Below, one piece after another: positions 9,277-48,519 of a DNA stretch of 64,000 nucleotides. Under the pieces are notes generated by a model, which saw only the letters and a list, made by a program, of their open reading frames with translations, had not been told where the DNA came from and did no database searches. Position 1 is the stretch's first letter. Each line of letters opens with the position of its first letter. The DNA comes from Octopus sinensis (taxonomy: Eukaryota), in contig NC_043000.1 of NCBI RefSeq assembly GCF_006345805.1, positions 66,588,001 through 66,652,000 of the forward strand, written 5' to 3'. A program made the translations under genes and the position numbers.

Positions 9277-12035
9277 ATCATCATCATCATCGTTGTTTAA
9301 TGTCTGCTTTCCATGCTGACATGGGTTGGACGGTTTGAGGGCTGGTGAGCCAGAAGGCTGCACCAGGCTCCTATCCAATCTGGCAATGTTTCTACAGCTG
9401 GATGCCCTTCCTAATGCCAAACATTCCAAAAGTGTAGTGGGTGCTTTTTACGTGCCACCAGCATGAGGGCCAGTCAAATGCTACTAGCATTGACCACACT
9501 TGGATGGTGCTTTTATGTGCCACAGGCATAGGAGCCAGTCAGGCAGCACTGAGAACGACCATGCTTGAATGGTGCCTTTTACATGCCACTGGCACTGGAG
9601 CCAGTCAGGCAGCACTGGCAATGATCACACTCGCATGATGCTCTTTACGTGCCACCAGCACAGGACCAGTCAGGTGGCATTGGCATTGACCACGCTCAAA
9701 TGGTGCTTTTTATGTGCCACTGGCATGTTTGCCAATCAGGTGGTACTGTCATCGGCCACGACAACGACTTCACTTGCCTCAACAGGTCTTCGCAAGTACA
9801 GTTTATTGCCCAATGATTGAACGGTACTCTTAAATGGGCTGGTTATGCTGCACTGGCATAGGCCACGGTTATGGTCTCACTTGACTTGCTGGGTCTTCTC
9901 AAGCACAGCATATCTCCAAAGGTCTTGGTCACTTGTCATCGCCTCGGTGATGCCCAACATTTGAAGGTTGTGCTTCAACACCTCATCCCAGGCCTGCCTG
10001 AGTTACTTCTTCCACAGGATCACTCTACTGCTAGGGTGTGACACTTTTACACATAGCCGTCCTCATCCATACGCAACACCTAACTGTACCAGTGCAGTCA
10101 TCTCTCTTGCACACCACATCTGATGCTTCTTATGTCCAACTTTTCTCTCAGGGTGCTTACACTCTGTTGTGTATGCACACTGACGTTACACATCCAGTGG
10201 ATCATACTAGCTTCATTCCTTTCAAAGTTATGCATGTCCTCAGCAGTCATGGCCCATGTTTCACTGCCATGTAGCATGGCTGTTCGCACACATGCCTCAT
10301 ACAGTCTGCCTTTTACTCTGAGTGAGAGGCCCTTTGTCACTAGCAGACGTAGGAGCTCTCTGAACTTTGCCCAAGCTATTCTTATTCTAGCAGCTACACT
10401 CTCAGAGCAGCCACCCCCGCTACTGATTTGGTCACCTAGGTAGCGGAAGCTATCAACTACTTGTAGTTTTCCGCCTGGAATATGACTGAAGCCGTTTTCT
10501 GCCCATTTTCAGTGATTAATACCCCTGAGCATTTGCCACGCACAAAAACTATCTTCTCATAGCTTACACCGGGTACATTTTATGGAGTTTCTACCTATGC
10601 CTTTTTTTACAGATTGAGCAGGGCTATCTACCTGAAGGGATTTGTGGTTTGTCTGCCTTCCTACTTATTAAGACTTTGGTTTTTGCTAGATTGATTCTAA
10701 GGCCCTTCACTTCTAGACCTTGCTTCCACACCTGAAACTTCTCCTCTAGTTCTGATAGTGACTCAGCTATTTTGAGCAAGGTCATCAGCATAGAGAAGCT
10801 CCCAGGGCCATACTGTCTTGAATTCTTCTATTATTGCCTGGAAGACTATGATGAATAAGAGGGGGCTGAGGACTGCTCCTTGGTGGACCCCTACTCCTAC
10901 CCGAAATTCTTCACTGTACTTGTTGCCAACTCTCACCTTACTGACAGCATCCCTGTACATGGCTTGTACAGCTCCCACTAACCACTCATCTATCTCTAAT
11001 TTCCACATTGACCACCAGATAAGGGATCAAGGGACCCTGTCAAAGCCTTTCTTCATGTCAACAAAAGCCAGATACAGAGGTTTATCTTTGGCTAGGTATT
11101 TCTCCTGCAGCTGTCTTACCAGAAATATAGCATCAGTGGTACTTTTTCCTGGCACAAACCCAGACTGCATCTTGTCTAGACTGACTCTCTCCCTAATTAG
11201 TTGGGAGACCCTCTCCCAACTATGACCCTCTCCGTGACTTTCATTACCTGATCCAACAACTTGATACCTCTGTAATAATTCATATCTAATGCATCACCCT
11301 TACCTTTGTAGCAGTTGACTATAGTGCTGTTACACCAGACATTGGGTATGACTCCTTCATGTATCACCTGATTGACTATACGGGTTACTAGACTATAGCC
11401 GATACCACCAGATATTTTAAGCATCTCTGTGGTGATTCCTGACGGGCTGGGGGCTTTCCCTATCTTCGTACCCTTAATTGCTTTATCTACCAAGGTACTG
11501 TCAATTCGGATAGCTGGTCACTCTGTTGGGTCAACATTTGGCAGACTCTCTTTCTCCCATTCATTCCCTTCATTTAGCAATCTTTCATAGTGGTGTCTCC
11601 AGGTCTCTCTCCTTGCAGCCTCATCAAATGCAAGTGAACCATCATCCATGCAGACACATTTCTCTCCTATGACATCATGATTCTCTCTCACACACTGTCT
11701 TGCAACATGAAGCACTTCAAGTCTTTGGTCCTCATGATGCAGAGCATTAGCAAATTTTTTCTTATCTGCTTCCCCTCTGGCTAAGTAAACCTGTCTCCTA
11801 GCTTTCCTTCTGGCAATCAGATACAATCCCCTGCTACCACCGTTTTTCCAGTCTTCCATGCCTGTTTCTTTACCTTCATGGCCCTGTTAACTACATTGTT
11901 CCACCACCATGTTATCTTGGGTCGAGAGGGGACTTTGCACCATTTACAGATCTGTAGAAACCTCCAGTTGTCTTCCACATCATGTGATGCTATATCCCTC
12001 TCTATTTTGTCAAAAGCTTCGAGTAATACGTTTTA
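9277..12035 (-). mobile_element. RTE-clade LINE, 5'-truncated and decayed
   Basis: Broken RT frames: GKAPSPSGIT, NYYRGIKLL, VGVHQGAVLSPLLF, LLYADDL, LYEACVRTAMLHGSETW; ~60-bp tandem units in 3'UTR (9430-9730); (GAT)n tail. Confidence 0.9.
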
Positions 12036-14973: not shown

Positions 14974-16459
14974 CCCTTTCATTACCAAGCCGCCCAAAAC
15001 CGTCCGTAATTACCTATTCATATTTAAATGAGAATATCATTAAAAATCTCGTTAGTACATTCGTGAAAACACGTGATTATACTTCGTAAACAGTTCATCT
15101 ACAGTTTTGTACAACGATCGACGTGTAATTTTAATTCCCTGAATTTTGGGAGATTTTTTTCCACATTTTTTTCGACATCGATTTTTCTTCAACTTTGAAA
15201 TGGATAGGAGTTTCATGTTATCAAGCATTGATTACGAATTTAAAGCTTTTTCAACGGAAAATAGAGAGATATCGAGAAAAAGAATGAATGAGGTTCAAAA
15301 GCACGTGGTGTACAAAATAATGAATAGGATATTTTTTTATCCGAAACCGAAAAGCAGCGATTTCGAAGAAACAAATCCGCGATGGTGACAGCAAAGACGA
15401 TTTTACATCGGAATGAAGTAAAAAACTTTTAAAATGTTTTTATTAGCAATTTTTCTGAGGAGATAGTTTATCTATATTCTTTCTTAGGAAGCAAAACCGT
15501 TAGACTTTGTTTTTTCTGTATGCTTGTTTGGAGCGATCACTGTGGAAGCAAACTGTTTCGCAGAATGTAAACAAACACAAAATGAGGGATCAAAGTTCGG
15601 AAAATTTGTGAAGTAAATACTGGGCACTGTTGTGGATTTAGTTTTTATACAGGGAAACTAATGTTAGTCAGCATGGCTTAGGGTATGATGGGGTCTGGAA
15701 GTTATTGTTTGAAGCGATCAATGCGGAAACAAATTTACGCAGATTGTAAACAATCACAAAATGGGGGATCAAATTTCGGAAAATTTGTGAAATAAATACT
15801 GGGTACTGTGTGGATTTAGTTTTTATACAGGGAAAATAATGTTAGTCAGCATGGCCTAGGGAACGATGTGGTCTGGAATTTATCACTTCCATACCATAAC
15901 CAGGGCCGTATATTATTTTTTGACCTATTTCTTTAGTTTGGTCAAACTTGCGGTGGATTCCAGTATTTCACTTTATTCCACCTTTATGGTACACCTGTTG
16001 TGCATTAAATTCAACTGATGTGCACAATTCTTCTTTATCAAAATTTTGTTGCATACCCATTTGAATATTAGCTGATGATTCATTTTCTATGGTGATATTT
16101 AAACAAAATTTTAATATTTTTACCTTTTGCTCAATTTAAAATTTAAAAATTTTTGCCTTTTGCTCAATTTAAAATTTTAATATTTTTACCTTTTGCTCAA
16201 TTTAAAATTTTAATATTTTTACCTTTTGCTCAATTTACCTGGATTTACCTGCAATTAAAGTCACTTTGAGACAAAAGTTATGCAATAGAATTGATTAAGA
16301 ACCCTTTCTTTAATTATGTTCCAAATATCACATTAATATGTTGATAAATAAAAAAAGTTACAGTTACTTAATGAAACAAGCCTAAATTCATGATTATTTT
16401 AGAATTTAATTGAAACTCATGAGGGGTGTATTTTGGTCAGAAATATAGTAACGAAAGGG
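14974..16459. mobile_element. Non-autonomous piggyBac-type element, 1486 bp
   Basis: TTAA|CCCTTTCATTAC...GTAACGAAAGGG|TTAA; internal ~178-bp tandem duplication (15525-15880) and ~33-bp minisatellite (16105-16236); no transposase. Confidence 0.88.
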
Positions 16460-23640: not shown

Positions 23641-24290
23641 TGTGTAAATATGTAAGTTACCATCACTCAAATGCTATATTAACCAATTAAGAGTTTAATG
23701 TACAGTAGAAACGTTTGATCACTATAAACAAATCATTTGTGCAGGTTATCCATCAAGAAATTGTAGAGTCATCTTTCTTGGACTGCGAGAGGCTACCATC
23801 ATCATAGGAGTTCACTTAGAAAACTTCACTCCTTAATTCTGATTCCAAACTATTTTTATTTCGTCTATAGGTAGGATTACCATAATTTCCAGAAGTGAAA
23901 CGTGGAACAATTGGAGTTGAAGCCAGGACCATGGGAGTTGATTCCAGGTGCAAAGGAAATTGAAATTGGGACCAATGGAATATCACACATGTTTTTAAGA
24001 GTCGCAACGTGTGAATTGAGTATTAAGGGTGAATTAGTCTCCTCTTCTCACAAGTCAGAGGATCTAGGGATTTCTTTTTACTGCAAATATATTTACATAT
24101 TTGCATGTTTTTTTCTGAATATGAAGGCAGTTCCTAGCAAGTGTTGAAAGGATATGTGAGACAGTAAGATGTACGATTTATCTTTATCACTTAAAAGATT
24201 GAGAATCTGGCCGAGGGATAGAAAAAGGTGAACAGAAACATGTACGAAGCAGCTATTATTTACATGGCAGCACATGCACTTAAAATATTA

Positions 24291-24461
24291 GTTTCAAGTT
24301 TTGGCACCAGGCCAGCAGTTTCGTGAGAGGAGTAAGTCGATTACATTTACTCCCAGTGCCCAACTGGTACTCATTTTATCGATCACGAAAGGCAAAGTCG
24401 AGCTCGACGAATTTGAACTCAGTATGTAGAGACAGACGAAATGCTGCTCAGCTAACGTTTC
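24291..24461 (-). mobile_element. SINE family 1 host copy: body + tail A (head displaced to 30178-30240)
   Basis: Tail A 'ctggcctggtgccaaaacttgaaac'; outer TSD 24272-24290 vs 30241-30259 (17/19). Confidence 0.8.
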
Positions 24462-24646
24462 TTATTTCTTTACTGCCCACAAGGGGCTACACACATAGGG
24501 GGCAAACAAGGACAGACAAACAGATTAAGTCGATTATATCGACCCCAGTGCGCAACTGGTACTTATTTAATCGAACCCGAAAGGACGAAAGGCAAAGTCG
24601 ACCTCAGCGGTATTTGAACTCAGAACGTAACAACAGACGAAATACC
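24462..24646 (-). mobile_element. SINE family 1, tail type B, nested
   Basis: Starts GGTATTTCGTCTG; ends 'ccccttgtgggcagtaaagaaataa', directly followed by head sequence GAAACGTTAGC. Confidence 0.85.
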
Positions 24647-24820
24647 TATTTCTTTACTACCCACAAGGGGCTAAACACAGCGAGGACAGACAAACGGATT
24701 AAGTCGATTACATCGACCCCAGTGCGTAACTGGTACTTAATTTATCGACCCCGAAAGGATGAAAGGCAAAGTCGACCTTGGCGAAATTTGAGCTCAGAGC
24801 GTAACAGCAGACGAAATACG
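24647..24820 (-). mobile_element. SINE family 1, tail type B, nested
   Basis: Starts CGTATTTCGTCTG; ends 'ccccttgtgggtagtaaagaaata', directly followed by GGTATTTCGTCTG. Confidence 0.85.
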
Positions 24821-25056
24821 AATTTCTTTATTGCCCACCGGGGGCCAAACATAGATATGGACAGTACAACTGATGAGATCAGTGAATCGATATGATTTTA
24901 CATAAATGTGACATCAAAAATAAAATACAATACATAAAAATCGAATGGAATACACAGTACAAAAACAATACAAATGAAGCGATGATCAAGTTACGCTCCG
25001 ATCCCACAAGCCCCGATCTACCGCTGATACCTTTTTTTTTTTTTTTTCTCGTCTAT

Positions 25057-28000
25057 TCACACGGTTCCTTGCACGCACAACACTCGTGCAACATACTTCC
25101 ATCTCTTTTGGAACGTACACTCTGACAGACACCTCTTCTCCAGCCACAGTTTCCTTTTCAAATGAAAAGAAAAAAAAAAAGGATCGCAAATTGTCACCAG
25201 AGATAAAGTTGCCTGTCTTAATTCCTTTTATCCTAGTCTTCCATACAGCCTCTTTTGCTATTGCTACAACCGTGAGAAAACAATTCTTACCCTCGTTCGT
25301 TAGAACTCCCGGTGGGTCAATTTTTATAATTGACTCAGTCGACAGCCGTACTCTTCCTTCGCCGGACAACAGATGTTCAGCATAAGCCCACATTTCAGTT
25401 ATCTCCGGACACTGAACAATAGCGTGAGGGACGGTTTCCCTGTCCCCACCGCATCTTGGACAGGTCGGCGACTGACGTTTACCATGTCTTGCGAGCTTAT
25501 CCCAAAGGGGCAAGGCACCTCTGTAGCATTGCCAGGTTAAGGACTTTTGGAAGTTGTCCAACGTTCTCAACCCGAATGTACGATGAAACAAGCTGTCCAG
25601 TTGAATAAATCCGAGACCTAGAGTCGACCCCAGGCCATCGTCGCATTCAGACTCTACCAACCCACTATATAAAATCCGTGTGGAACCCCCCCCCCCCCCC
25701 CGCTGGCGTTGCCCGAGCGCCGGAACAGCAAGAGGGCCTTACGGCACTCTTTATGCCACTCACTCGACCTCGGTCTACGAGAACACCAGGCTTCCTGTTC
25801 GCAAAAACTCTTGAACTCAGGGAACATTTGTCTGGCCAGCGGAGACCACACCCATTCACTATCCAGGAGAATCCAGAGGTGCCTCAACCTCAACGCATGT
25901 CTGCGCATCATTAACCAAGGCATCCCTAAACCTCCATTTAAAGGCTTTTGACAGCAGACAGAGCGTTTCACAAGTGGCGACCTGCCCTTCCACAAAAAGC
26001 GAAAGAGCTGTCTCTCCAACCTGATCAACCACGAATCCGGACGGCACGACGGTCAGGCGGTAGGTAATGACCGATGCGATAAACACATTGGCCACTTCCG
26101 CCCTCCCTTTCAGGGATAGCCATCGCCAAGACCAGGTCTTGACTACTGCAGCCACCCTGCTCAATACCTCCGTCCAGTTCTTCTCTATCTGGAGGCCTGG
26201 TCCAAACCAGACTCCCAGCAACTTAACCGGTCCCTCCGTCCAGCGCCTAACAACACTGTCTGAAGGCATCGACTTGCCAACCCAGGTGCCGAGCTGCAAG
26301 CCGACCGACTTTTCCCGGTTAATCTTTGCTCCTGCTACCTCCTCGTAAGCCTCAATAGTCTTACCTACTTCACGTAGGCGTGCCACTGTGGTTACACTGA
26401 TAGTGATATCATCCGCGAAAGCCGTAACAAACTCCTCTAGTCCTGGTTCTCTCGGGATGCCACTCAACCTTTGCAGTAATGGCTCGAGAGCCATCACATA
26501 CAAAAGTGGTGAAAGCGGACATCCTTGACGAACCGAGCGTCTGATGCAGAACGGCTTCGAAAGGAAACCGTTCACCCGAACTATCGAGTCAATGTTGTGG
26601 TACAAAGCGATAAACCACCCGAGGAAGCCAAGGCCCAGGCCAAACCGCGCAAGTACAGTCGCTAGGTATCGATGGTCAACCCTATCAAAAGCTTTAGACT
26701 GGTCCAAATGCACCAATGCCCCACCTTTGCCAGATTTATTACCAAACCTCTCTATGGTATAGCGAATAAGATGGAGGGTATCTTGAATGGTTCTGCCTGG
26801 GATGGCACATGTCTGTGCCTCCCCGACTATACCAATCGCGACACGCGCCAACCTTTTTGCTAGAACCTTGGCCAAAATCTTCACTTCTGCGTTTAACAGA
26901 GTGATGGGCCTGAAATTATCTAGAACGTCCCCCTTGTCCGGGTCCTTTCTGATCAACGTCACTACTCCCCGGCGCACAGATCTGGGGATAAACCCATTCT
27001 GTTTCCAGTTCGCGTACACGTCAGTCAGTAGTTGCCCGAACAAGTCTGGCATACATTTATACAGCTCGTACGGAAGACCATCAAGTCCCGGTGACTTACC
27101 CGCTTTACAATCGGCCAAAGCCTCCATCACCTCCTCAGGTGTGATTGGCCCTTCGCAAGACTCCGCATCCGACCCCGAGAGGCACGGCAGCCCGGTAAGA
27201 AAGTCCTCGAGGGCTCTCCCACCACCAGGACCGCCGTCACCCCCGAACAGCTGGGCGAAGTACTCCCGAAAGACCTCACACATTTTCTCGGGTTCGTTTA
27301 TCAAGACACCATTTTGATTCGTCAAAGACCGAATAGAGGAACTATTTCCTTGCCGAGCTTCCACCACTCGGGCGCATCCAGCGGCTTTGATTCCTTCACT
27401 TCCCATTGCACGTAACTTAGCTCTGGTAATACTTCCCATGTGGTGGGCTTCAAGATGTTGGTTTAACTCCAGTCTTTTCACCCTCGCTTGGTCTGTATTA
27501 CAAGTCCTCCAGGCTTCTTCTAGTTCCTTAACTAGACCATCTCCTATTTTACGTCCCTTCTTAGCTAAACTTATGCTAAACCTAATAGACTCATATTTGA
27601 TGGCTCTTTTTAGGGCGTACCACCATTTGTTATTAATGATGGTACCTGTTAATGCCCTCTGTATTAACATCTTGATCCGCTTCTCTGTACTCCTCAATCG
27701 CCAAAAGGGACGTATTGAGTTTCCAGTAGCCAGATCCCTGTCTATGCAACTTATCTACCGTCAGTTTACAGGTAACCATCTTGTGGTCACTGTAGCTGAC
27801 TAGAAAAAACTGTGGACACTCAACTATGGACTTATCTTTTTCTCTAATTAAAATCCTATCTAGATATGTTCTGGTAGACCCGTCACTATTTGACCACGTC
27901 CACTGTGGAGTGTTCGGGTGCTCCAACCTATATGGATCTGCTAGCTGAAATTGACTTAGCAGATCCCGAAAGCCTGGGTTACATTTTCTGTTCATGTTCG

Positions 28001-28469
28001 AGTTTGAGCCAACACAATCTGTGTGTGCTGCACATATTGTATTAGAGTCTCCTAACACTACTAGTGAATGCGACGTGGCTAGGAACTTTCCTAGGCCACG
28101 AAAATATTCAGTTTGCGGGCCAATAATGTTTGGTGCGTAAATAGCGACCAGCCTGATTGTCTTGCCACAACTGAATGTCAAATCGAGAACGACCAGCCTG
28201 CCTTCTGGGTCAGAAAAAACCAACTTTTTCTCGGCTACCCGGTTTCTTTTTAGTAGGACCAACACCCCACCCCCACCTCCCGCCCGACTCGGAGAAACGT
28301 ATTTCTCGTAGCCGTTCAGGAGGGGGAGCAGATCTCTTGGTCCCTTCACCCGGGTTTCCGTTGCAACAATTACATCCAAATTTCTCGACCTGATGTCATT
28401 CAGAAAGCGTCCTTGCTTCCAGCTTGACAACAGGCCATGAACATTTAAACAACCAATGTGAATAGCCAT
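25057..28469 (-). pseudogene. Tx1 ORF2: APE endonuclease, reverse transcriptase, C-terminal Cys domain (frameshifted)
   Basis: LNVHGL, ATET, IYAPN, LGDSN, LDRI, SDH; KSPGLDGLP, NFRPITLLN, LDQSKAFDRV, VRQGCPLSPLLY, FADD; GGLGMP; CPRCGGDRETVPHAIVQC; shifts near 27700, 26040, 25690, 25170; inferred stop 25057-25059. Confidence 0.93.
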
Positions 28470-28480
28470 CACTTACCTGT

Positions 28481-30037
28481 TTAATTAGGATTGTCCGGTG
28501 GAGGGGGACCCTCCACCTTTTTTTGATCCAGGGTCGGTGGACGGTCTTGGGAAATAGATTTGTCAAAATCCCGTCTCACCACCGACACAGAATTATCAGG
28601 TGGAGGGGGAATCTCCACCTTTTCCTTTTCTCGCGGGATCGGAGCTGGTAATCCATGAAATATCGACTTGTTAAAATCTAATCTCAATGAAGATACAGTC
28701 TTTCTGTACTTATTTTGTAGAATTCTATAAGTCTTATTTGAGACTTCATATATGTCGTAATTGATAAATTCCTCTGAAAGGTTATCAATTTTTTTTAGTC
28801 TTTATGAGTTGAATGTCTCTCATGAGCTCAGTATCTTTAGTGTATACGGCTATTATGCCTTTTTCTGCTTTTTCTCTTCTGGCAGTCTTTTTTGGTCGTT
28901 GTTCTGTAGTAGTCGCCGCTCTCGGCTGGGTTGCTGGTTGTATTTTTCTTTTGTTTGTTGTTTTTTTCTCATCTGTTTCTTCTTTATCTTCTTCCTCTTT
29001 GTCTTTTTTCTCCTCTTCCTCCTCTTCTTCATTTTCCTTGCAGTTCCTTCGAATGTGGCCTAATTGACCACATAAAAAACATCGAGGTTTTCGGCCCTCA
29101 ACAAACACCACGAGGTTCTCCTCCCCTACCTCAATTGTCTCAGGAATTGTTTGAATTATTTTAGGGTCCGCTTGAATGAGAAGATTAATTGTTTGACCAT
29201 CCCAGCGTGGGTTTTCCGTAGCGGTAGCCTGGAGGAGAGTAATTTTTTTTACCTCTTTGATTAGGACTGCCGCCAACAACCACATAGGTTCGACCTCTGG
29301 CGGGACCCTTGTAATTTTTATTCGCGACGTCCTCATCCCCCTATAATAGGGGATTAACTCCACGTCGTTCGTTTTCAACGTTTCAACTGAGTTCTTGTGT
29401 GCTATTTCTTTATTGGTGAACCTTACTTCCACCGTTCCGAATTTTTTTCCTCTTCTCAGAAATACGTCGCCCAATATTGGCTTTAAGCACTTTTCTATTT
29501 TCTCTTCTGACATTCTGACATTCTTTCAATTTTTCTTTTTTGTAGACAATATGTTTTGAAAATTATTGTTTTTTGCTTTTCTTCCTGTAATAACTTTTGC
29601 GGAGGTTCAATTTTCACACCGTTGTCAGTTATTTCCATCATTTTGCTGTATTTCATAATTTCGCTTTTATTCGTCGACAGTATCTGGGTTCCACCCCCAG
29701 CAGCCAACGCAAAACTTTTTTTTCCATTTTTTGGTTCTATCTGGATGCTAGGCACATCAATTATTCTCTTCGACACAATGCCTTTGTTCTCTGGCAAAGT
29801 CGGAAACTCTTCTGGTGAAAGTTCTGACGAGCTCTCAGACACATCTCCAAAAATATCAAATATATTATCCTCTCTGCTATTCCTTCTTGTAGCGGGGGAA
29901 ACCCCTATTTCCTTGTCTGTAGTTGGCTCCTCGCCGGACATGTATTTCCTCCTCTCAACAGGAGAAACAAGTATTTCTGCTCCAACGGTAGGCTCCATGC
30001 TAGACGACATTCTTCCCCCCAAAGGGGGAATGAACAA
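28481..30037 (-). pseudogene. Tx1 ORF1: gag-like RNA-binding protein (frameshifted)
   Basis: ORF pieces 29495-30037, 28785-29513, 28481-28687; KSFALAAG, RRM-like segment, RCFLCGQLGHIRRNC zinc knuckle, acidic/basic tract. Confidence 0.88.
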
Positions 30038-30177
30038 CGCGTGCTACCACAAGCACTAAGTGTTTTCAATTGAAAACTCCAACAGTTAAGTTATTCAACA
30101 GTTTAACAAGAAACAACAGTTGTTAACAATATTAACACCACGAAACAGCAATTCTTACTTCACGAACACATGTGCGA

Positions 30178-30240
30178 CAGACGAAATACGGCTACGCATT
30201 TCGCCCGGCGTGCTAACGATTCTACCAGCTTCGCCGTCTT
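30178..30240 (-). mobile_element. tRNA-like head of the SINE interrupted by Tx1
   Basis: aagacggcgaagctggtagaatcgttagcacgccgggcgaaatgcgtagccgtatttcgtctg, same head as 33217-33275. Confidence 0.88.
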
Positions 30241-30329
30241 ACATGCACGTAACATATTATCAAGTAGAATTGTAGCGTTTAAAAATATATCAAACACGTG
30301 TTTTTATCAGGTAATATTTCATACAATTA

Positions 30330-30447
30330 CCATCGAGGTCGACTTTGCCTTTCATCCTTTCGAGGTCGACAAAGTTGCGTACTGGGATCGATCTAATAGA
30401 CTGGCCCCTTCCCAAAACTTTCGGGCCTTGTGCCTAGAGTAGAAAAG
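30330..30447 (+). mobile_element. 5'-truncated SINE family 1, tail type C
   Basis: Tail 'gggccttgtgcctagagtagaaaag'; exact 17-bp TSD AATATTTCATACAATTA at 30313-30329 and 30448-30464. Confidence 0.85.
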
Positions 30448-30524
30448 AATATTTCATACAATTATCAGTAATTTCATATTTTTCACTTAAATAACTACTC
30501 TTCTAAGAGATTCATTGTCAATTT

Positions 30525-30610
30525 TGACCCCGGTGCGTAACTGGTACTTATTTAATCGACCCCGAAAAGATGAAAGGCAAAGTCGACCTCGGCGGAATTT
30601 GAACTCAGAA
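30525..30610 (-). mobile_element. SINE family 1 body fragment
   Basis: 'aaaggcaaagtcgacctcggcggaatttgaactcagaa'. Confidence 0.7.
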
Positions 30611-33055: not shown

Positions 33056-33216
33056 AATAAGACCTGATAATATCATTTATCAATGTGTGAACGAGTTGAG
33101 TTCAGATAATTCTATTGTTTCTCTCAATCCACGAAAACTTCCTGTCGTCAATTGGTTTTTTAATGGCCATCTGGATTTTTAATCGAGGGAACAATTCTGA
33201 ATATTATGGTTTATTG

Positions 33217-33603
33217 AAGGCAGTGAGCTGGCAGGAACGTTAGCACGCCGGGCGAAATGTTTAGTGGTATCTCATCTGCCGCTACGTTCTGAGTTCAAAT
33301 TCCGCCGAGGTCGACTTTGCCTTTCATCCTTTCGGGGTCGATTAAATAAGTTACACACTGGGGTCGATATAATCGACTTAATCCGTTTGTCTGTCCTTGT
33401 TTGTCCTCTCTGTGTAACCCCTTGTGGGTAGTAAAGAAATAGGTATTTCGTCTGTCATTACGTTCTGAGTTCAAATTCCGCCGAGGTCGACTTTGCCTTT
33501 CGTCCTTTCAGGGTCAATAAATTAAGTACCAGTTGCGTACTGAGGCCGACTTAATCGACTGGCCCCTCCCCCAAATTCCGGGCCTTGTGCCTAGAGTAGA
33601 AAA
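33217..33603 (+). mobile_element. SINE family 1 nested dimer (tail-B copy inside tail-C copy)
   Basis: Head, body and tail B end at 33441, then GGTATTTCGTCTG, body and tail C; outer TSD 33199-33215 vs 33604-33620 (15/17). Confidence 0.88.
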
Positions 33604-33839
33604 GAATATTGAGGTTTATTCGTGAGAGTAAAGTAAAGGGTTTTGGTTTCAAATCCTGGTTGAGCTATTGCTAAAAGTGTTTCATAATGTATCAATATAT
33701 TACGACATTTCTGACAGATCAATATAAAAGTCATAACAAATAAAAAATATTCTAAATTTCCGAAAAAACGGAACATAATTTCAAACTAACCGAAGCAATG
33801 ATAATAAACTGGAACGTATCGTAACTACTATATATTGAA

Positions 33840-33927: not shown

Positions 33928-34599
33928 CCATTAACTGAGATAAAAAGGTGGGGGATGGATTGACCGTGGGAAGTTGGATAAAATATCTTGCAGTATTTGA
34001 CCTGGCTATTTATTTCCCCAAGTTTAAACGGTTCCGTGGTCAACAATACATTCTCTTCTTTCGGAGTCGAAAAGAAAAATGAAGTACCAGTGGCATACTG
34101 AGGTCGAATTATCTGACCGCCCTTTTTTGCATGCCCGTCGCTAAAGGAGTGCACTGGACGGCACTGCCCTCTCACTATTCAATGATGCGCCCTCAGATTT
34201 ACAGTGACACGCCTATTTCGAAACTCCACGTTAGCATTATTACAGATTAGTGCTTACCCAGAATATTCTGAAGCACCACCAGGTACCATAGTCTTGCGAC
34301 GGGTCTGAATTTGTACCAACATATAATGGACAAAATACAATATAGTTACGTGACGCGCTGATGACAGGTAAATAAGACCGGCAGCAAGAATACACTGTTG
34401 CAACATGAATCGTATTTTTGTGTCTACTCTGTATTACATCACCGACACACACACAAACTCTCCCTTAGTAAAAATGAACTCTATCAAACGTGATATTGAT
34501 AAATAGAACCAGATTTCGTTTAAAAAGTAAGTAAACAAAATCTAGTTTCTTTGTAACATTTTCATCGCATCAATACGCATGAATGTGTTTCTAACATAC

Positions 34600-35042
34600 T
34601 GGTTTCAAATTTTGGTACAAGGTAAGTAATTTTGGGATCGGGGTAAGTCGATTATATTGGCCCCAGTGTTCAACTAGTACTTATTTTATCGATCTTGAAA
34701 GGATGAAACGTAAAGTCGACTCGGACAGCTTTTGAACTCAGAACGTAATGTCAGGAGAAATGCCGCTAAGCACTTTTCGCATTGTGGAAACGGTTCTTCC
34801 AGCTCGCCGCCCTTTGTGCTTCTTATATATTGATTTCAAATTTTGGTACAAAGCCAGCAATTTTGGGGTTGGGGTAAGTCGATTACATCGACCCCCGTCT
34901 CCAATTGGTACTCATTTATTTATCCCGAAAGGATGAAAGGTAAAGTCGACTTCGGCGGAATTTGAACGCAAAACTTGAAGATGGACGAAATGCCGCTAAG
35001 CATTTTGCCCAGTGCCGTAACGATTCTGCTAGGCCGCCGCCC
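34600..35042 (-). mobile_element. Two tandem full-length SINE family 1 tail-A copies
   Basis: Units ~34600-34812 and ~34831-35042. Confidence 0.85.
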
Positions 35043-35136
35043 CATGTGTTTCTTATATATTGATTGTAATAATTAATTAGGTATATTTAATTATCGATAT
35101 TACCAGAGAAATATATACTTTAACATTGCTTAACAC

Positions 35137-37016: not shown

Positions 37017-40000
37017 CTAGATAAGTGCTGTAACGGATTACTGGGGCTCCAAGGTTATGGAACATTGTTGCCTCATCCCACTGCAGATATACATTCACGC
37101 ATGTCAGTCTAAAAGTGACAGTGTAATAGTAATGTAATAGTAATACTTTAACACTCAATGGTTTTACACTTCTGTATATGACATGGACCTACTATGTAAG
37201 TGCTTCTTCATATACTGTGTTTTTTGTCTTGCCATGTTTATCCCTGAGAATGTAGAGGTTCTTTTTTTATCTCAAACTCTAGAACATCCAACATACAGCT
37301 GACCATGTGAGAAACAGGATTGAAGGAGTTTAAGATCCACCACCTTTAGAGACTGACCTTGTGCTTTTTTGATAGACATTGCAAAGCTAAGTTTGACAGG
37401 AAATTGCAGTCTCTTGAACTGAAAGGGGAGATCATTTGAGATGAGAGGTATCCTTGGAATGAAGACATTCTCCCCATCATGTTGCCTGTAATTATTGTTG
37501 CTTCCAACACATGAAGCATAGCTATTTTAACAACCAATATTCTTCCATTGCAGAGTCTGGGTGCATCAAGGTTTCTTAATAGCTTTATGGGAGCATCTGT
37601 TTTCACGATCAGAATGTGTGGTGGAAATTCTGGTGGCTGAAGTGAATTGAGGAACTCCACTGGGTAATGCGTTGCCTGTTCTTGATCAGGAACAGAGTCA
37701 ATTGATCTGTACGCAATTGATTAGGTCCTGGAAGCTGAGGCAACAAATTTGAATTCAGCTTGTCTACAGCATCATTCCTTGGTGCCAGAATTGTTCTCCC
37801 ACATAGCCACTTGTGACTTTTATAGTTTGTGGCAATGTTTGGAAACACCTTGCTCTTTAGTTCTTCAACGGAGGCAGTCATATTACCACATGGGAGATGG
37901 TGCAGACATCTTCTGGATCTTGTGGAAGCTTTCCACTTCCAATGTCAAGTAACTTATTGGAGAACTGTGTGGCTAACGGATCACCATGAATGTGGATCCT
38001 CATGTTGCTTGTCAGAGTAAGCTGCTTGACATGTTGCCAGATATATGAAGACTTGATGCAAGCTCTCAGCTCATCTGCCCTTGTTCCTCTGGGAATGACA
38101 AGCAGCGTTTGCCTGAAGTCACTTGCCATGAGGAGGGTGACACCACCCATGATCTAATTGCTTCTGAAGTCTTGTAATGTTGTATCAAGCGCCACAAAGG
38201 CTGCCTTTTGGGACATTGTTGCCTCATCCCAGACGATGAGTTTGGCATCTGTAAGGAGCTTTGCTAATGATGTATTCTTGGATATGTTGCATAAAGGAGA
38301 TTCATTTTGGATGAGGTTCAGAGGCAGCTTGAATGTTGAATGGGCTGTTCTTCCACCTGTCAGAAGTGAAGATGCAATTCCAGAGGATACAACAGCCAGA
38401 GCAATCTTCTGTCTCACCTTGGCAAGGAACTGATTGATCAATAATGTCTTTCATGTGCCTCCAGGAGCATCTAAGAAGAAAACCCCCTCCAGTGTTATTG
38501 TCCACAGATGTAAGAACTTGCCAGTATACCCCCTCTTGATCCTGTAGCAGAATTGGTTCCTTTTCATTGACAACTGCTTGCACACTTTTCAAGTTGTATG
38601 ATGTTTCCCTGATTAGCTCTTGTGCTAACATATATTTAGCATCTCTGACAGGAGCTGGAAGACCATAGATTTCAAGTTTGTTTCCATCCAGTGATTGAAC
38701 CTTGTTGTCTATTAATCTTAATGCTTCATTGAAAATGTCATCATTGAACGTGACATCACAGTCACACTAATATTTAATTCTTTGAAGAATGTCTCCAAAA
38801 AGCCCCTCCTTGTATTTGTACCAAAGTTGATCTGGATTTGACAATCCACAGTTCACCAGCATGATGGAGAAGAGGTTTCTCAGTTGCATAGGAGACTTGC
38901 ACATTTGTGCCTCTGTCAGAGTGACATCCCAGTATGCATCATCTTCCAGAAAACCTCTGAGATGGCAAGCCTGGCGATATGTTTGACATACTGTGTTATC
39001 AACCGTGCATAAAGCTGTAAATGATGTGGGTCCCTTGACATGGTGTAATAGAAGTCTTAGATAGTAGCACTCTGAGTAGTTTGGATGGACAACATAGACA
39101 CTGCCAAGTGTGTCTGATTTTTTGATTCACGGATGATGTGTAGGTGCTCCAAGTGCACGTCTTTTCCATTTGTTTTGGCAACAGGTATGGAATGGTGGAA
39201 CTTCATTGTATAGTAGTGTTGTAACAAATTCATCATCTTGACAGAGCTTGAAGAATACTGTGAGTGTGAGCTTCCATTTGTAGTTGGACTGTGTCTAGGA
39301 TGTAGTAAACCATTTCGCCATTCTCCAAGTGAACTGCAAGATGTTGCACGTGGGGATATCTCTCATGAATGGGGAACCTGAAGATTCTCCAACATGCTTC
39401 ACCACTGTTGATACACCTTCACATTTGGAAGGTCTTGATTTTAGCATTGCTCCCTGAATCCTGGACTGCACAGACTGCCATGTCAGATCCTTTGTTGACA
39501 TATTTGTACACATACTTAATGGATTTCACTGAGTTACAGAACTCAACATTGATGTGTGCGTTGAATATCCTGAAGAGATATTGTCAACGGGAATTTCAGT
39601 TTCAAATAACCTCTTGTTGTTGGTTTCAAACCCATCATCACTTGGCCTTCTTCTTCTGAAGAGTGGATAGCCATCATGTCCAGTCTGTGTCTCTTGAAGG
39701 AACTTCTTTTGAAAGCCTTTTCTACACTTTCTATCCTGCATGCATGGAGCATGTAAGTTGATGTTGCCACATGGACCATGAACCATTTGGGTCTTGACCA
39801 CATTGAAGAGTTCTGGATCTTCTGAGGATCTGGAATCTCTGCACTGATGAACTTATCTATTATCCAGGCATAGATTTAGTCTGTAAGCCACAGCAGGATG
39901 TGTACATGAGGAAGTCCACGTTTCTGCCACTCTATTGTATATATGTGGAATCTAGTGGCACCGAACACTTTATCTTTGGTCAGTAACTGCATGAGCTTGA

Positions 40001-42356
40001 TAACCTTCTGTCTGAAGACCCTTGCCTATCGTTAGGCTGTTGGTTTGAGAAGAGTTCATTTTGAATCTCTTTCCCTTTAGGATTGTATGTGAAGGTTATG
40101 AAGAGGTCTGTTCTGAAGTAGTGTCTAACATATGTCATGGCATCTTCTGTGTGCTCATGCATGTATCTTGGGCTTGCTGTGAATGATGATGGAAGGATGA
40201 TCAGTTGGCCCATGTTGCTGACATCATGATCATTCAGCATTGCATCTTGTAGGTGTGCATATGATTCCACACTCAATTTCTTCTGGTTCAGTCTCAAGTA
40301 GAGTAATCGTTCACTTTCAGTTTATGCATACGTGTCAACAATGAACTGACTGAACAGACCTCTACAATGTAGGATGTGGTTTGAATCTTAACTCCTGATG
40401 TGGAATGCATAGAAGTCATTGGCTGAAACTCGCTTTGAGAAGTTTATCTGACTAATGTCAATGTGGTAAATATTTTGTCCATAACAGAACAGCAATGTAT
40501 ATTGTAGTGCATCATAGGATCTGTGCGTTTCTGAAATCCTCATCAATGTGCTGCCTCTGAGATGGAAGACAATATCACGTTTGTCATGTTCTTGCTCAAC
40601 CAGAAGCACAGCTATTTCATTTACCGTTGGCGCATTAACCCTCTCTCCATGTTGACCAGATGGTTTCTTGTCTGATCTGATAACTACTTTGCAATCCATG
40701 GAGTCAGGTGGAATTGTTTCAAGCGCTGTTTTGAAGCTTCTGATCAGGTTGTTACTGCAATGCAGCATCTTTTGCAGAGACTCTACAATGTTCATCCTGA
40801 TGCCGGAAATGTTCTTGCATTTCTATTGAGAATCATCCATAAAATATATTTGAAGGAATTTTGGTGATTCATTCGACAGAGGTAGTAGAGAGCCAATCCG
40901 ATGATAAATCTGACCTTGGACATTGAAAGTTGGCATGAATCCTGGTTCAATTATATCTCTTGTGGCTCCAAATGATGTCATCTGTAGTGCAGCATTGTAC
41001 TGTCTAACTTTGTTTTGGAAGTGCTTGGAATCTTGGTCAGTTGATGACAACAGTTTCTTCAATGGCTCTGGAGGTAGGGGGATTGCAGGAAATTTAACCT
41101 TTCCACCACCGCAGCACAGTGCAGGTGTTTCTCCAAGCCACTTCCTTGCTTTACAATATATGCACTCCGTTGTCATTGCACCAATAGAAACTCCAATGTC
41201 ATCTGCATAATGAATTGCTGGATCATAATCGAAAGCTGCTTCATAGAAGTTGCTTCTCTGAGCTGTTGCAACTGCTCTTCGTTCTGCAGTGGAGATCCTA
41301 TTCCTTGTCAGTCGTGCATACTTCTGTTCATTACTTTGAGATGTTCTGATTTTTATAGTACACAGCCTGTTCGTTTCTTGGTGTGCTTCCCTTTCTGCAG
41401 CTGTCTCCCTTTCCCTGGACAGAGACATTCTTTTGGCTGACCATGACATTGTAGACAAATTTAATACTTTCCTTCTAGGTATGGTTATATACGTATACAG
41501 AAATACACGGGTGCAGAAGATAGTAAACAAGGTAACGGAAATTATGTTTCTTAACACGACGGGCAGAAAGCAAATAAGAAATTTTAACTGAAAATAAAGT
41601 ATTGTACGGGTTGAAGCGAAATTTGTCACTCAGTTAACCAAAGAGTCAGTATCGAAGGAACCAGAAAAAACCGTACTTCTCTCAGTAAATTATGAAATTA
41701 CATCAGTAATAGTGAAGTTGTCATAAATAGCAATTTAAAACTTAAACTTACAGTCAAAATAATAACGATTGTAGTTAAAGTGAAAAAACAATAGCGTGGG
41801 AAAATTGAAACCGTACGGATTGAAGTGAAATTAATGAAGATACTTCTGTCAGTAAATTATGAAATTGCTTACATCAGTAATTGCGAATTTCTTTCTATCA
41901 GTAATTAGTCGTTGTTTGTTTGTAAATAGTGATTCAAAATTTAGACTTACAGTGAAAACAATAACATGGAAATTAAACAATGGCGTATGAAAATTGAAAG
42001 TGAAAAGAATAGCGTCTGAAAAATGAAAGTGAAAACAAGAGATATAGATAGAGGTAGATAGCGAGAGATTGATGCATAAAGAGAGAGATGGATACATAAA
42101 GAGATATGTTACGTCTTTGATGCTAGAAAATCGGAAGTAAATATTTTCAAATCTTTCAAAGTCGTGAATGTAATATAAAAAGCAATAGCAGCATGTAAAT
42201 ATTTTTTTATTTTTAATAATTTTTAATAAAAAAAAAAAAATCAAATGAATAGCCTATAATTTGTCCGAGGTCAAATTATTCATGCATCACAAGTATGATA
42301 GCAATTGGTGAAGCCGTTTTCCCATGAAAAGTGAATACTCACGCGTCTCTATTATA
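37017..42356 (-). mobile_element. Helitron, autonomous type, decayed
   Basis: 3' CTAG at 37017-37020 with remnant hairpin GTAA-TCCG-TTAC; 5' end '..TATAATAGAGACGCG'; RepHel coding region. Confidence 0.9.
37200..41449 (-). pseudogene. Helitron RepHel (HUH Rep + PIF1-like helicase), multiple frameshifts and stops
   Basis: [125 protein letters not shown]. Confidence 0.93.
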
Positions 42357-47004: not shown

Positions 47005-48380
47005 ATGTTGGCTGCCCCCTCGAGTATAGCCATTGCACGAAGCTTAACTGTTATTGGTGCTGTGATCGAATGTGACTTTTTAGCCCAGCTAAAGATCTAC
47101 AATGTCTTGTGCAGAATTGGCAACTAAAACCTTTACCGGTAATAGCCGGCTGTAGTTGTAACTGGGCTTCATGTACCTTTGCATGTCGTTTAAGTCCTCC
47201 TGCCGAATTACACTCTCTTCCACATGCCTGACAGATATGATTAGTATGGTGTCTAACACCATCACCAGTGGCCAGGTTGTCACTCATCGGTTTTGCTTTA
47301 TGACAACAAAGATGACTCTTGAGTCCAGCTTTACTGAGGCAAGGTCTTGCACAGACACTGCATGTCAGCATCATAGGAATACCCTTCCCATCTGGAAGTG
47401 TAACAGCAATGCTCTTCCTGACATCCCTCCTTACTTTCTCATGCGCAACTCGAGATTTCTCAAAAGTAGCTGTCTCCTCATGCACAATCCTTCTCCACCT
47501 GCTACAATCAATAGCTATGCCCTCCCATGTGTCAGGAGAAATGCAAGCATCTCTTAAGGAAGCCTTCAGCAAGTCCTTATATCTCTTTTTTGGTTTATGT
47601 GGGGGTCGTTCTCCTTCAGCTAACTCTCCATAAAAGTGTTGTTTTGGCATCCTGGAATCCTTCATCCTGATCAGATGACCACTCCATCTGAGCCTTTCCT
47701 TTAACACAAGAGCTTCTATACTTTCGCACCGAGAGCCTTCCAATATTTAAAGATCACCGATGCAGTCCCTCTTAATGCCATAGATCCGTCTGAGACACAT
47801 CTGATGGAAACGTTCCAGTTGTTTAAGGTGGTATCGATAAGTGAACCACGTCTCGCAGGCATAGAGAAGAGAAGGGAGCACACATGCCTTGTGCACCTTT
47901 ATCTTTATCTTTCTGCATATGTCTCGCCGACTCCAGAGGCGCCTTTCTAGCCTTCCGAAAGCATCACTTGCTTTCCCAATTCTGTATGGAATTTCATCAG
48001 CCAAATTGCCATATCTATTAACAGTGCTTCCCAGGTAGACAAACTGATCAACTACATCAAGTCGTTTACCATATACATATATATTTGGTACACTATACTG
48101 CTTACCAAGGGCAGGTTGGTACATGACAAGAGTTTTCTTGAGATTGACTGTCAATCCTAAGGCAGTGCAAGCATCAGAGAATGCATTCAAAATGTATTGC
48201 ATATCAATCTCTGTGTGCGCTACTAGATCACTATCATCTGCACACAAAAGGTCTCTTATGATAGAGGTAAATACCTTTGTTTTTGCAGCAAAGGGCTTGA
48301 TATTAAATATGCTGCCAGAGGTTCGATAATGGATGTAAATACCATATCTGCAGTTTCTGAATGCAATACAGAAAACCATC
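47005..48380 (-). mobile_element. RTE-clade LINE 3' part with C-terminal C2H2 fingers
   Basis: IRDLLCADD, LGLTVNLKKT, FVYLGS, LLYACETW, RLRWSGHLIRM..SRMPK..YGEL, KRYKD. Confidence 0.9.
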
Positions 48381-48519
48381 TGTACATACATCAACTATAC
48401 ATACATACATGCATGCGTGCACACATACAAACGTACATTCATACACTCATATAAGTGTGTGTGTATTTATTCGCAAGGATGACACGCAAATTCGTGAAGC
48501 GTTCCATATTTTTATTACT

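Follow-up and report, generated by a model that had tools for sequence, protein, structure and literature searches.

In the 64,000-nucleotide stretch of octopus DNA analysed here (the window), a SINE on the minus strand, at 24272..30259, has been enlarged by a LINE and by further copies of its own kind whose 3' ends abut SINE heads at internal sites. The order of the parts, the duplications around them, the homology between the LINE's 3' end and one of the SINE tails (tail B), and the positions of the junctions are all established. They point to a mechanism in which the tail-B SINE probably uses the endonuclease and reverse transcriptase (RT) of this LINE, or of a close relative, and inserts at two sites within SINE heads. 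Read along the minus strand from 30259 to 24272, the array runs from a flank copy through the SINE head (30178-30240 in its whole span, including site 1), the LINE, two units of body and tail B, and a tail-A host remainder to the second flank copy. SINE sequence makes up 2.8% of the window. The parts of the array, and of a second one nearby, are as follows.

30241..30259, minus strand: outer target-site duplication (TSD), 5' copy, 17/19 to 24272-24290, adjoining the SINE head
30191..30240, minus strand: the array's sole head, tRNA-like; the free SINE heads of the window match it at 80-88%
30178..30190, minus strand: site 1, the left one of the two 13-bp copies around the LINE, identical to the right one at 24808-24820
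24821..30177, minus strand: full-length LINE of L1/Tx1 type (5,357 bp), here with frameshifts, recognized by Pfam domains
28788..30010, minus strand: ORF1 of the LINE, in two frames, with a CCHC zinc knuckle (PF00098)
24989..28469, minus strand: ORF2 of the LINE, in four pieces, with APE endonuclease (PF03372), RT (PF00078) and zf-RVT (PF13966)
24821..24870, minus strand: 3' end of the LINE, homologous to SINE tail B (79% over 48 nt; shuffle tests)
24647..24820, minus strand: unit B1, consisting of site 1 (24808-24820), SINE body and tail B
24463..24646, minus strand: unit B2, consisting of site 1, SINE body and tail B
24291..24462, minus strand: host remainder, consisting of site 2, a head stub that lacks 16 nt, then the body and tail A
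24272..24290, minus strand: outer TSD, 3' copy, 17/19 partner of 30241-30259
33217..33610, plus strand: second array, with head, body and tail B, then site 1, body and tail C
33199-33215 and 33604-33620, plus strand: outer duplication of the second array, 15/17

The coordinates and strings given by the first-pass annotation of this locus are right, and its order of parts (head, LINE, B, B, tail-A host) is confirmed. The 19-bp outer repeat that it reported is real: the two copies agree at 17/19 positions, and in about 1,500 random pairs of 40-nt flanks the best 19-mer match was at most 15, none reaching 16/19. This repeat sits exactly at both SINE ends, and its first bases may overlap the end motif of tail A. 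It starts with an AATAT-type motif, as do the duplications around further tail-A/C copies in the window: 20/21 at 34.8 kb, 19/20 at 30313/30448 and 15/17 for the second array. The inner repeat around the LINE is exact, as had been claimed (13/13). The string GTATTTCGTCTG stands at 30178-30189, 24808-24819 and 24634-24645, and again at 33443-33454, while GAAACGTTAGC stands at 24451-24461 and is matched at 10/11 positions by 30212-30222 of the outer head (site 2, 30212-30223); two junctions at site 1 and one at a second head site are therefore found as they had been placed, and both sites recur elsewhere. Unit B1 has a 10-nt deletion inside tail B. The host remainder has diagnostic bases common to free tail-A copies, along with private deletions of 16 and 8 nt. 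The outer head carries the B-type base at site 1 and is free of the host's 16-nt deletion, which would be explained if the incoming copy, joined seamlessly at its 5' end, had supplied the inner part of this head.

Rfam and ARAGORN gave no tRNA match in the SINE head, where the box-like motifs were judged by eye against the consensus; on that footing the A-box-like motif of the array head is at about 30217-30227. No ribozyme or tRNA family scored usefully. A search of the window for snRNA gave no match, and the SINE is one without a U1- or U2-derived head; its probable target is the SINE head.

Other repeats surround the array. Fifty-five bp outside it lies a 5'-truncated tail-C SINE with a 19/20 duplication (30313-30467, plus strand), followed by a lone SINE body on the opposite strand (30515-30610). 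Two full tail-A SINEs stand in tandem at 34583-35065 (minus strand) with a common duplicated site of ~21 bp (20/21 and 18/23), apparently one AT-rich site hit twice, or else duplicated between TSDs. At 47051-48394 (minus strand) an RT fragment is followed by C2H2 zinc fingers, presumably a decayed RTE-type LINE, and frames picked out by eye at 38302-41629 (minus strand), without a Pfam hit, resemble Helitron Rep/helicase remnants. The window also has a 178-bp two-copy tandem at 15524-15883 (89%) and a 65-bp tandem array at 9440-9727.

All three tail-B ends in the window run into a site internal to a SINE head, as does the single LINE end. Three of these four ends are at site 1 and one is at site 2, and all of them have the same orientation. 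Nesting by target-directed insertion, as proposed at first pass, is supported, as is the recurrence of both sites. None of the eight tail-A/C ends in the window is at a head-internal site, and several have duplications of 17-21 bp that begin with AATAT. The partners downstream of tail B differ (tail A, tail B and tail C), and sites 1 and 2 have no clear common sequence. That the LINE itself targets site 1 we regard as very probable.

LINE contigs from four other runs (X1, X3, X4 and X9, 4 of the 24 listed) extend this picture beyond the window, each junction being reached in two of the four. The LINE's 3' end continues into SINE sequence for 12 nt in an X1 contig (depth 87) and for 28 nt in X4 (depth 9.8), and its 5' end does so for 27 nt in an X3 contig (depth 10.3) and for 13 nt in X9 (depth 24.2). 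No contig in the four runs bridges a LINE junction with 31 letters on each side. Because the depths of the junction contigs are far above that of the flank bin (0-1.85), we infer that these contigs merge several copies and stop where entry into a high-copy repeat makes the assembly branch. Contigs of two other runs also have, at the 5' junction of the LINE, the extra C that makes the duplication 13 rather than 12 bp long; this base is thus a variant that several copies share and does not mark the present insertion alone. The variant of the outer head beside the LINE is likewise found in the X3 and X9 contigs, since their 15 and 16 recorded differences are all explained by those listed inside the LINE; this points to a preference of the LINE for one SINE subfamily or to carriage of that stretch of head in its RNA.

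For tail B, the joints and ends cited here are among those listed, of 492 joints and 1,541 loose ends. In X1, loci other than this one also join tail B to site 2 under an intact head, and the joint takes two forms that differ by 3 nt (24630>24451, in 5 contigs, and 30218>24462). Three of 21 spurious ORFs (P0198, P0202 and P0205) likewise have tail B on site 2, the spacer varying in length among them, in a sample that is biased because the query favours arrays; in one more (P0207) tail B is followed by other sequence, and the rest have no tail end or are ambiguous. A further entry, P0199, was excluded from this sample as an unrelated repeat protein. Besides P0207 there is one other counter-example, an X3 contig in which a tail end is followed by 26 AT-rich bases and then a new head (joint 30230>24822), and tail B is not always nested. 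Neither a 5'-truncated tail-B insertion nor an empty orthologous site was seen, and no contig among those listed lies over the orthologous flank. Depth over tail B is about one third of that over the body in three runs (in X3, 8,496 at 24502 against 26,669 at 24611), a ratio that serves as a hint of abundance and not as a copy number.

The link between the SINE and the LINE is made by their 3' ends. Over its final 48 nt the LINE agrees with tail B at 79%, terminus to terminus, and in shuffle tests of three tail-B copies only 0, 0 and 1 of 2,000 shuffles did as well. The same test gave 156-1,871 of 2,000 for four tail-A/C copies, which have no homology to the LINE end. Given the 21% gap between tail B and the LINE end, a sister LINE family may be the real partner; contigs diverged by 10-15% from the window LINE are abundant over its RT region. 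A hairpin of 3-4 bp precedes the A-rich end in the LINE and in two of the three tails, with z-scores that are not significant and a stability no greater than that of shuffles. DNA pattern scans of metagenome, viral and prokaryote collections gave no match to tail B or to the SINE body.

In architecture, with two ORFs, a CCHC knuckle in ORF1, and an APE endonuclease, RT and zinc domain in ORF2, the LINE is of the Tx1 type. A quick tree places its RT region in a clade of its own with 13 unnamed proteins (support 99, best identity 55%), beside the U2- and 5S-linked elements. The 66 rows of this tree come from 24 of 120 listed proteins and from 41 of 80 loci, elements other than named Tx1 or L1 references. 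The RT frame scores 250-295 bits against six U2-linked elements and 232-245 bits against three that are 5S-linked or have 5S-like flanks, compared with 134-137 bits against human L1 ORF2p. An Rfam scan of 40 related loci placed U2 beside the element in 6, 5S in 2 and U1 in 1, and the nearest relatives with readable flanks adjoin U2 or 5S RNA genes; Mutsu is a 5S-targeting Tx1 family. The LINE works like a Tx1 element, and its formal membership of the Tx1 clade is likely. The metagenome relatives used are the best 80 of 471, and the 40 best tabulated among them include no member of the window LINE's own clade. Alignment of the LINE to viral contigs found no relative. The LINE occurs under seven organism codes; some of the runs may be gut or environmental samples, and we therefore make no claim for several species. 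Among the listed runs, none that carries the LINE is recorded as RNA. For O. vulgaris, 13 L1-Tx1 families with recent activity and a mean length close to this one have been described, with no analysis of targets in the portions available of PMC13282606.

Several features of the LINE and its relatives are noted in passing. Two related strong hairpins, 102 bp apart (28487-28521 and 28589-28623), lie in the inter-ORF region just before ORF2 and are a possible translation signal. A clade of ORF2 proteins of ~1,150 aa (P0001 and P0003-P0025), some in clusters of hundreds, is sister to the window LINE. Related LINEs with a U1 gene downstream (L033:9202-9356, by Rfam), a U1-like 5' end (L005:1-110, by eye) and a tRNA-like 5' stub (L025:1-120, by eye) are candidates for further target-specific families.

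We envisage the following course of events. The SINE would have gained tail B from the 3' end of a Tx1-type LINE, in place of tail A or C at the end of the body. The LINE protein would nick SINE heads at one of two places: site 1, which lies between the A- and B-box-like motifs, or site 2, in the A-box-like motif, the latter perhaps through a sister LINE family or through pairing of tail and target. RNA would be copied at the nick starting from tail B, and the head sequence of the incoming copy would pair with the cut host head, giving a seamless 5' joint. Each event would add only a body and tail B under one head, and the upstream unit would again be an intact SINE with both sites, making the process repeatable. 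At this locus the host would have received B2 first, at site 2, B1 next, at site 1, and the LINE last, unless B1 and B2 came in as one RNA. For R2, co-transcription with the target can strengthen targeting, according to the text available from PMC4494074.

How many events there were, and in what order, is settled only in part. Of the three successive insertions first claimed, a layered nesting with the LINE last holds, but the number may be two rather than three, since B1 and B2 could have come in together as one RNA. A diverged outer and an exact inner repeat had been read as giving the order of events; they separate the LINE from the rest but do not order the host and the B units among themselves. 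The idea that each insertion regenerates the target fits the intact head-plus-body upstream of each B unit, but the LINE insertion restores only about 13-16 bp downstream of the site and so less than the whole target. The LINE differs from X9 contigs at 39/5,423 positions (about 0.7%), against 22/240 for the B bodies, and on divergence it is clearly the youngest layer. Few differences from the X9 contigs, which lack several of the indels in the window, indicate that the LINE family is young; the window copy is damaged, or mis-assembled at homopolymers. Between the host and the B units the difference in age is not significant (15/111 against 22/240, p=0.26). Neither array has a run of four T on its sense strand, so multi-unit RNAs are possible, and with them either two events or ready-made dimers.

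These last observations bear on an unlikely alternative, in which the arrays descend from master multimers. Rare tail-B insertions would have made head-B-host dimers, which would have been transcribed whole, spread by the partner LINE of tails A and C, and entered AT-rich sites; site-specificity would then be true of the LINE only, with one or two founding insertions. As four T in a row are absent, pol III could read through either array. Both arrays lie within outer duplications of the AATAT type that goes with tail-A/C insertions; the two joints of tail B to site 1 found in the window, at 24646 and 33442, are letter-identical, as expected of one founder's copies, and the host is not significantly older than the units within it. 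A small set of founders is, however, hard to square with hosts of three tail types, two sites and several forms of site-2 junction, with the private 16- and 8-nt deletions of the host, or with the use of site 1 by the very LINE that has the matching tail.

Local tandem duplication, or unequal crossing-over at homologous bodies or duplicated sites, taking a dimer to a trimer before the LINE arrived, is quite improbable. TRF does call a 174-bp tandem here (2.0 copies, 87%), and unequal recombination between TSDs has been proposed for SINE arrays of bivalves in the text available from PMC11481361. A duplication should leave neighbouring units most alike, but B1 and B2 differ by 19/174 (about 11.7%) and B2 differs from a unit 9 kb away by 17/176 (9.6%), so that the refuting case foreseen at first pass finds no support. 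One variant is common to B1 and B2 and absent from both of the other window copies, whereas each of them shares other variants with the distant array; neither unit has the other as its closest relative, a point against duplication, and duplication gives no origin for the joints of tail B and head themselves. Chance nesting by A-rich microhomology in a SINE-rich genome, with no targeting enzyme, is extremely unlikely: SINEs form 11.6% of the O. vulgaris genome (PMC13282606, in the part available), the AGAAA of the tail resembles the start of site 2 and two off-target tail ends were found, but 4/4 ends lie at two exact positions in one orientation, site 1 has no such microhomology, and tail-A/C ends are never so placed in the window.

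If the tail-B SINE does enter SINE heads with borrowed LINE machinery, a broader reading can be offered tentatively. One of the most abundant SINEs of octopus, with a captured tail from a site-specific LINE, might parasitize its own family, entering SINE promoters by seamless joining of head to head, rebuilding its target, and leaving a large share of young SINE bodies of octopus genomes in self-grown arrays and not at new sites; the basis for "a large share" is the read-depth hint of about a third. Were this so genome-wide, the SINE would spare genes by landing in its own kind and would multiply its own target; the targets described to date are fixed ones in rRNA, snRNA or a third-party transposon. 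The SINEs of O. vulgaris have been split into about 900 recently active families, with no target analysis in the sections available of PMC13282606; nested multimers, if genome-wide, could inflate such family counts and blur age profiles. The young, probably active LINE family and its 13-bp site also form a compact test pair for how APE endonucleases gain specificity.

A chance antisense frame of the array matches mis-predicted proteins of Octopus bimaculoides, and the SINE is thus an octopus family; octopus SINEs have been named OR1, OR2 and OK. Its body matches a SINE-like stretch in an otherwise unrelated contig (L024) at 83% over 52 nt. The closest parallel lies in crocodilians, where the target of SINEU and Tx1-Mar is inside Mariner-N4 (Kojima 2015; PMC4494074). 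As far as the text available goes, a Tx1-clade LINE and a SINE there also share a target inside another transposon, with two preferred sites, and tandem copies that sandwich a TSD are read as sequential insertions, hitchhiking being the rival explanation there too. SINEU differs in having snRNA heads and no 3' end in common with the LINE, and its target is a third element (PMC4494074, same text). The octopus SINE has a tRNA-like head and, on the reading proposed here, a LINE-derived tail and its own head as target, and each SINE insertion would therefore rebuild the whole target.

Other fixed-site Tx1 elements include Tx1L in Tx1D of Xenopus, Keno in U2 snRNA, and Kibi and Koshi (PMC4494074, in the part available). 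Together with Mutsu, and within the limits of the descriptions available, these resemble the window LINE as APE-type LINEs with an ORF1 knuckle, a zf-RVT domain and a fixed site in a multicopy sequence; the window LINE differs in its separate lineage in the tree and in its probable SINE-head target. The accessible part of PMC4758252 added nothing on targets. Zepp of green algae likewise piles retroelements in nested clusters at one locus, but it is an autonomous LINE with one large cluster per chromosome, in contrast to the small dispersed arrays of a non-autonomous SINE in octopus (PMC3446292, from the portions available). MetaSINEs (MESC), marked by a 66-bp Meta domain after the tRNA head, also combine a tRNA-like head and a common body with several tails, which lead to different partner LINEs (PMC4824008, available text), and bivalve SINEs also form short tandem arrays (PMC11481361, available text). 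In the available text of these two sources neither a Tx1 partner nor self-targeting is described, and "Tx1" has 0 matches in that of PMC11481361. Nothing in the open-access literature searched describes insertion of a SINE into its own head, or the octopus system. Tx1 LINEs that enter transposons, nested clusters, tail exchange and arrays are thus the known parts of this system, and the proposed self-targeting of the SINE is the new one.
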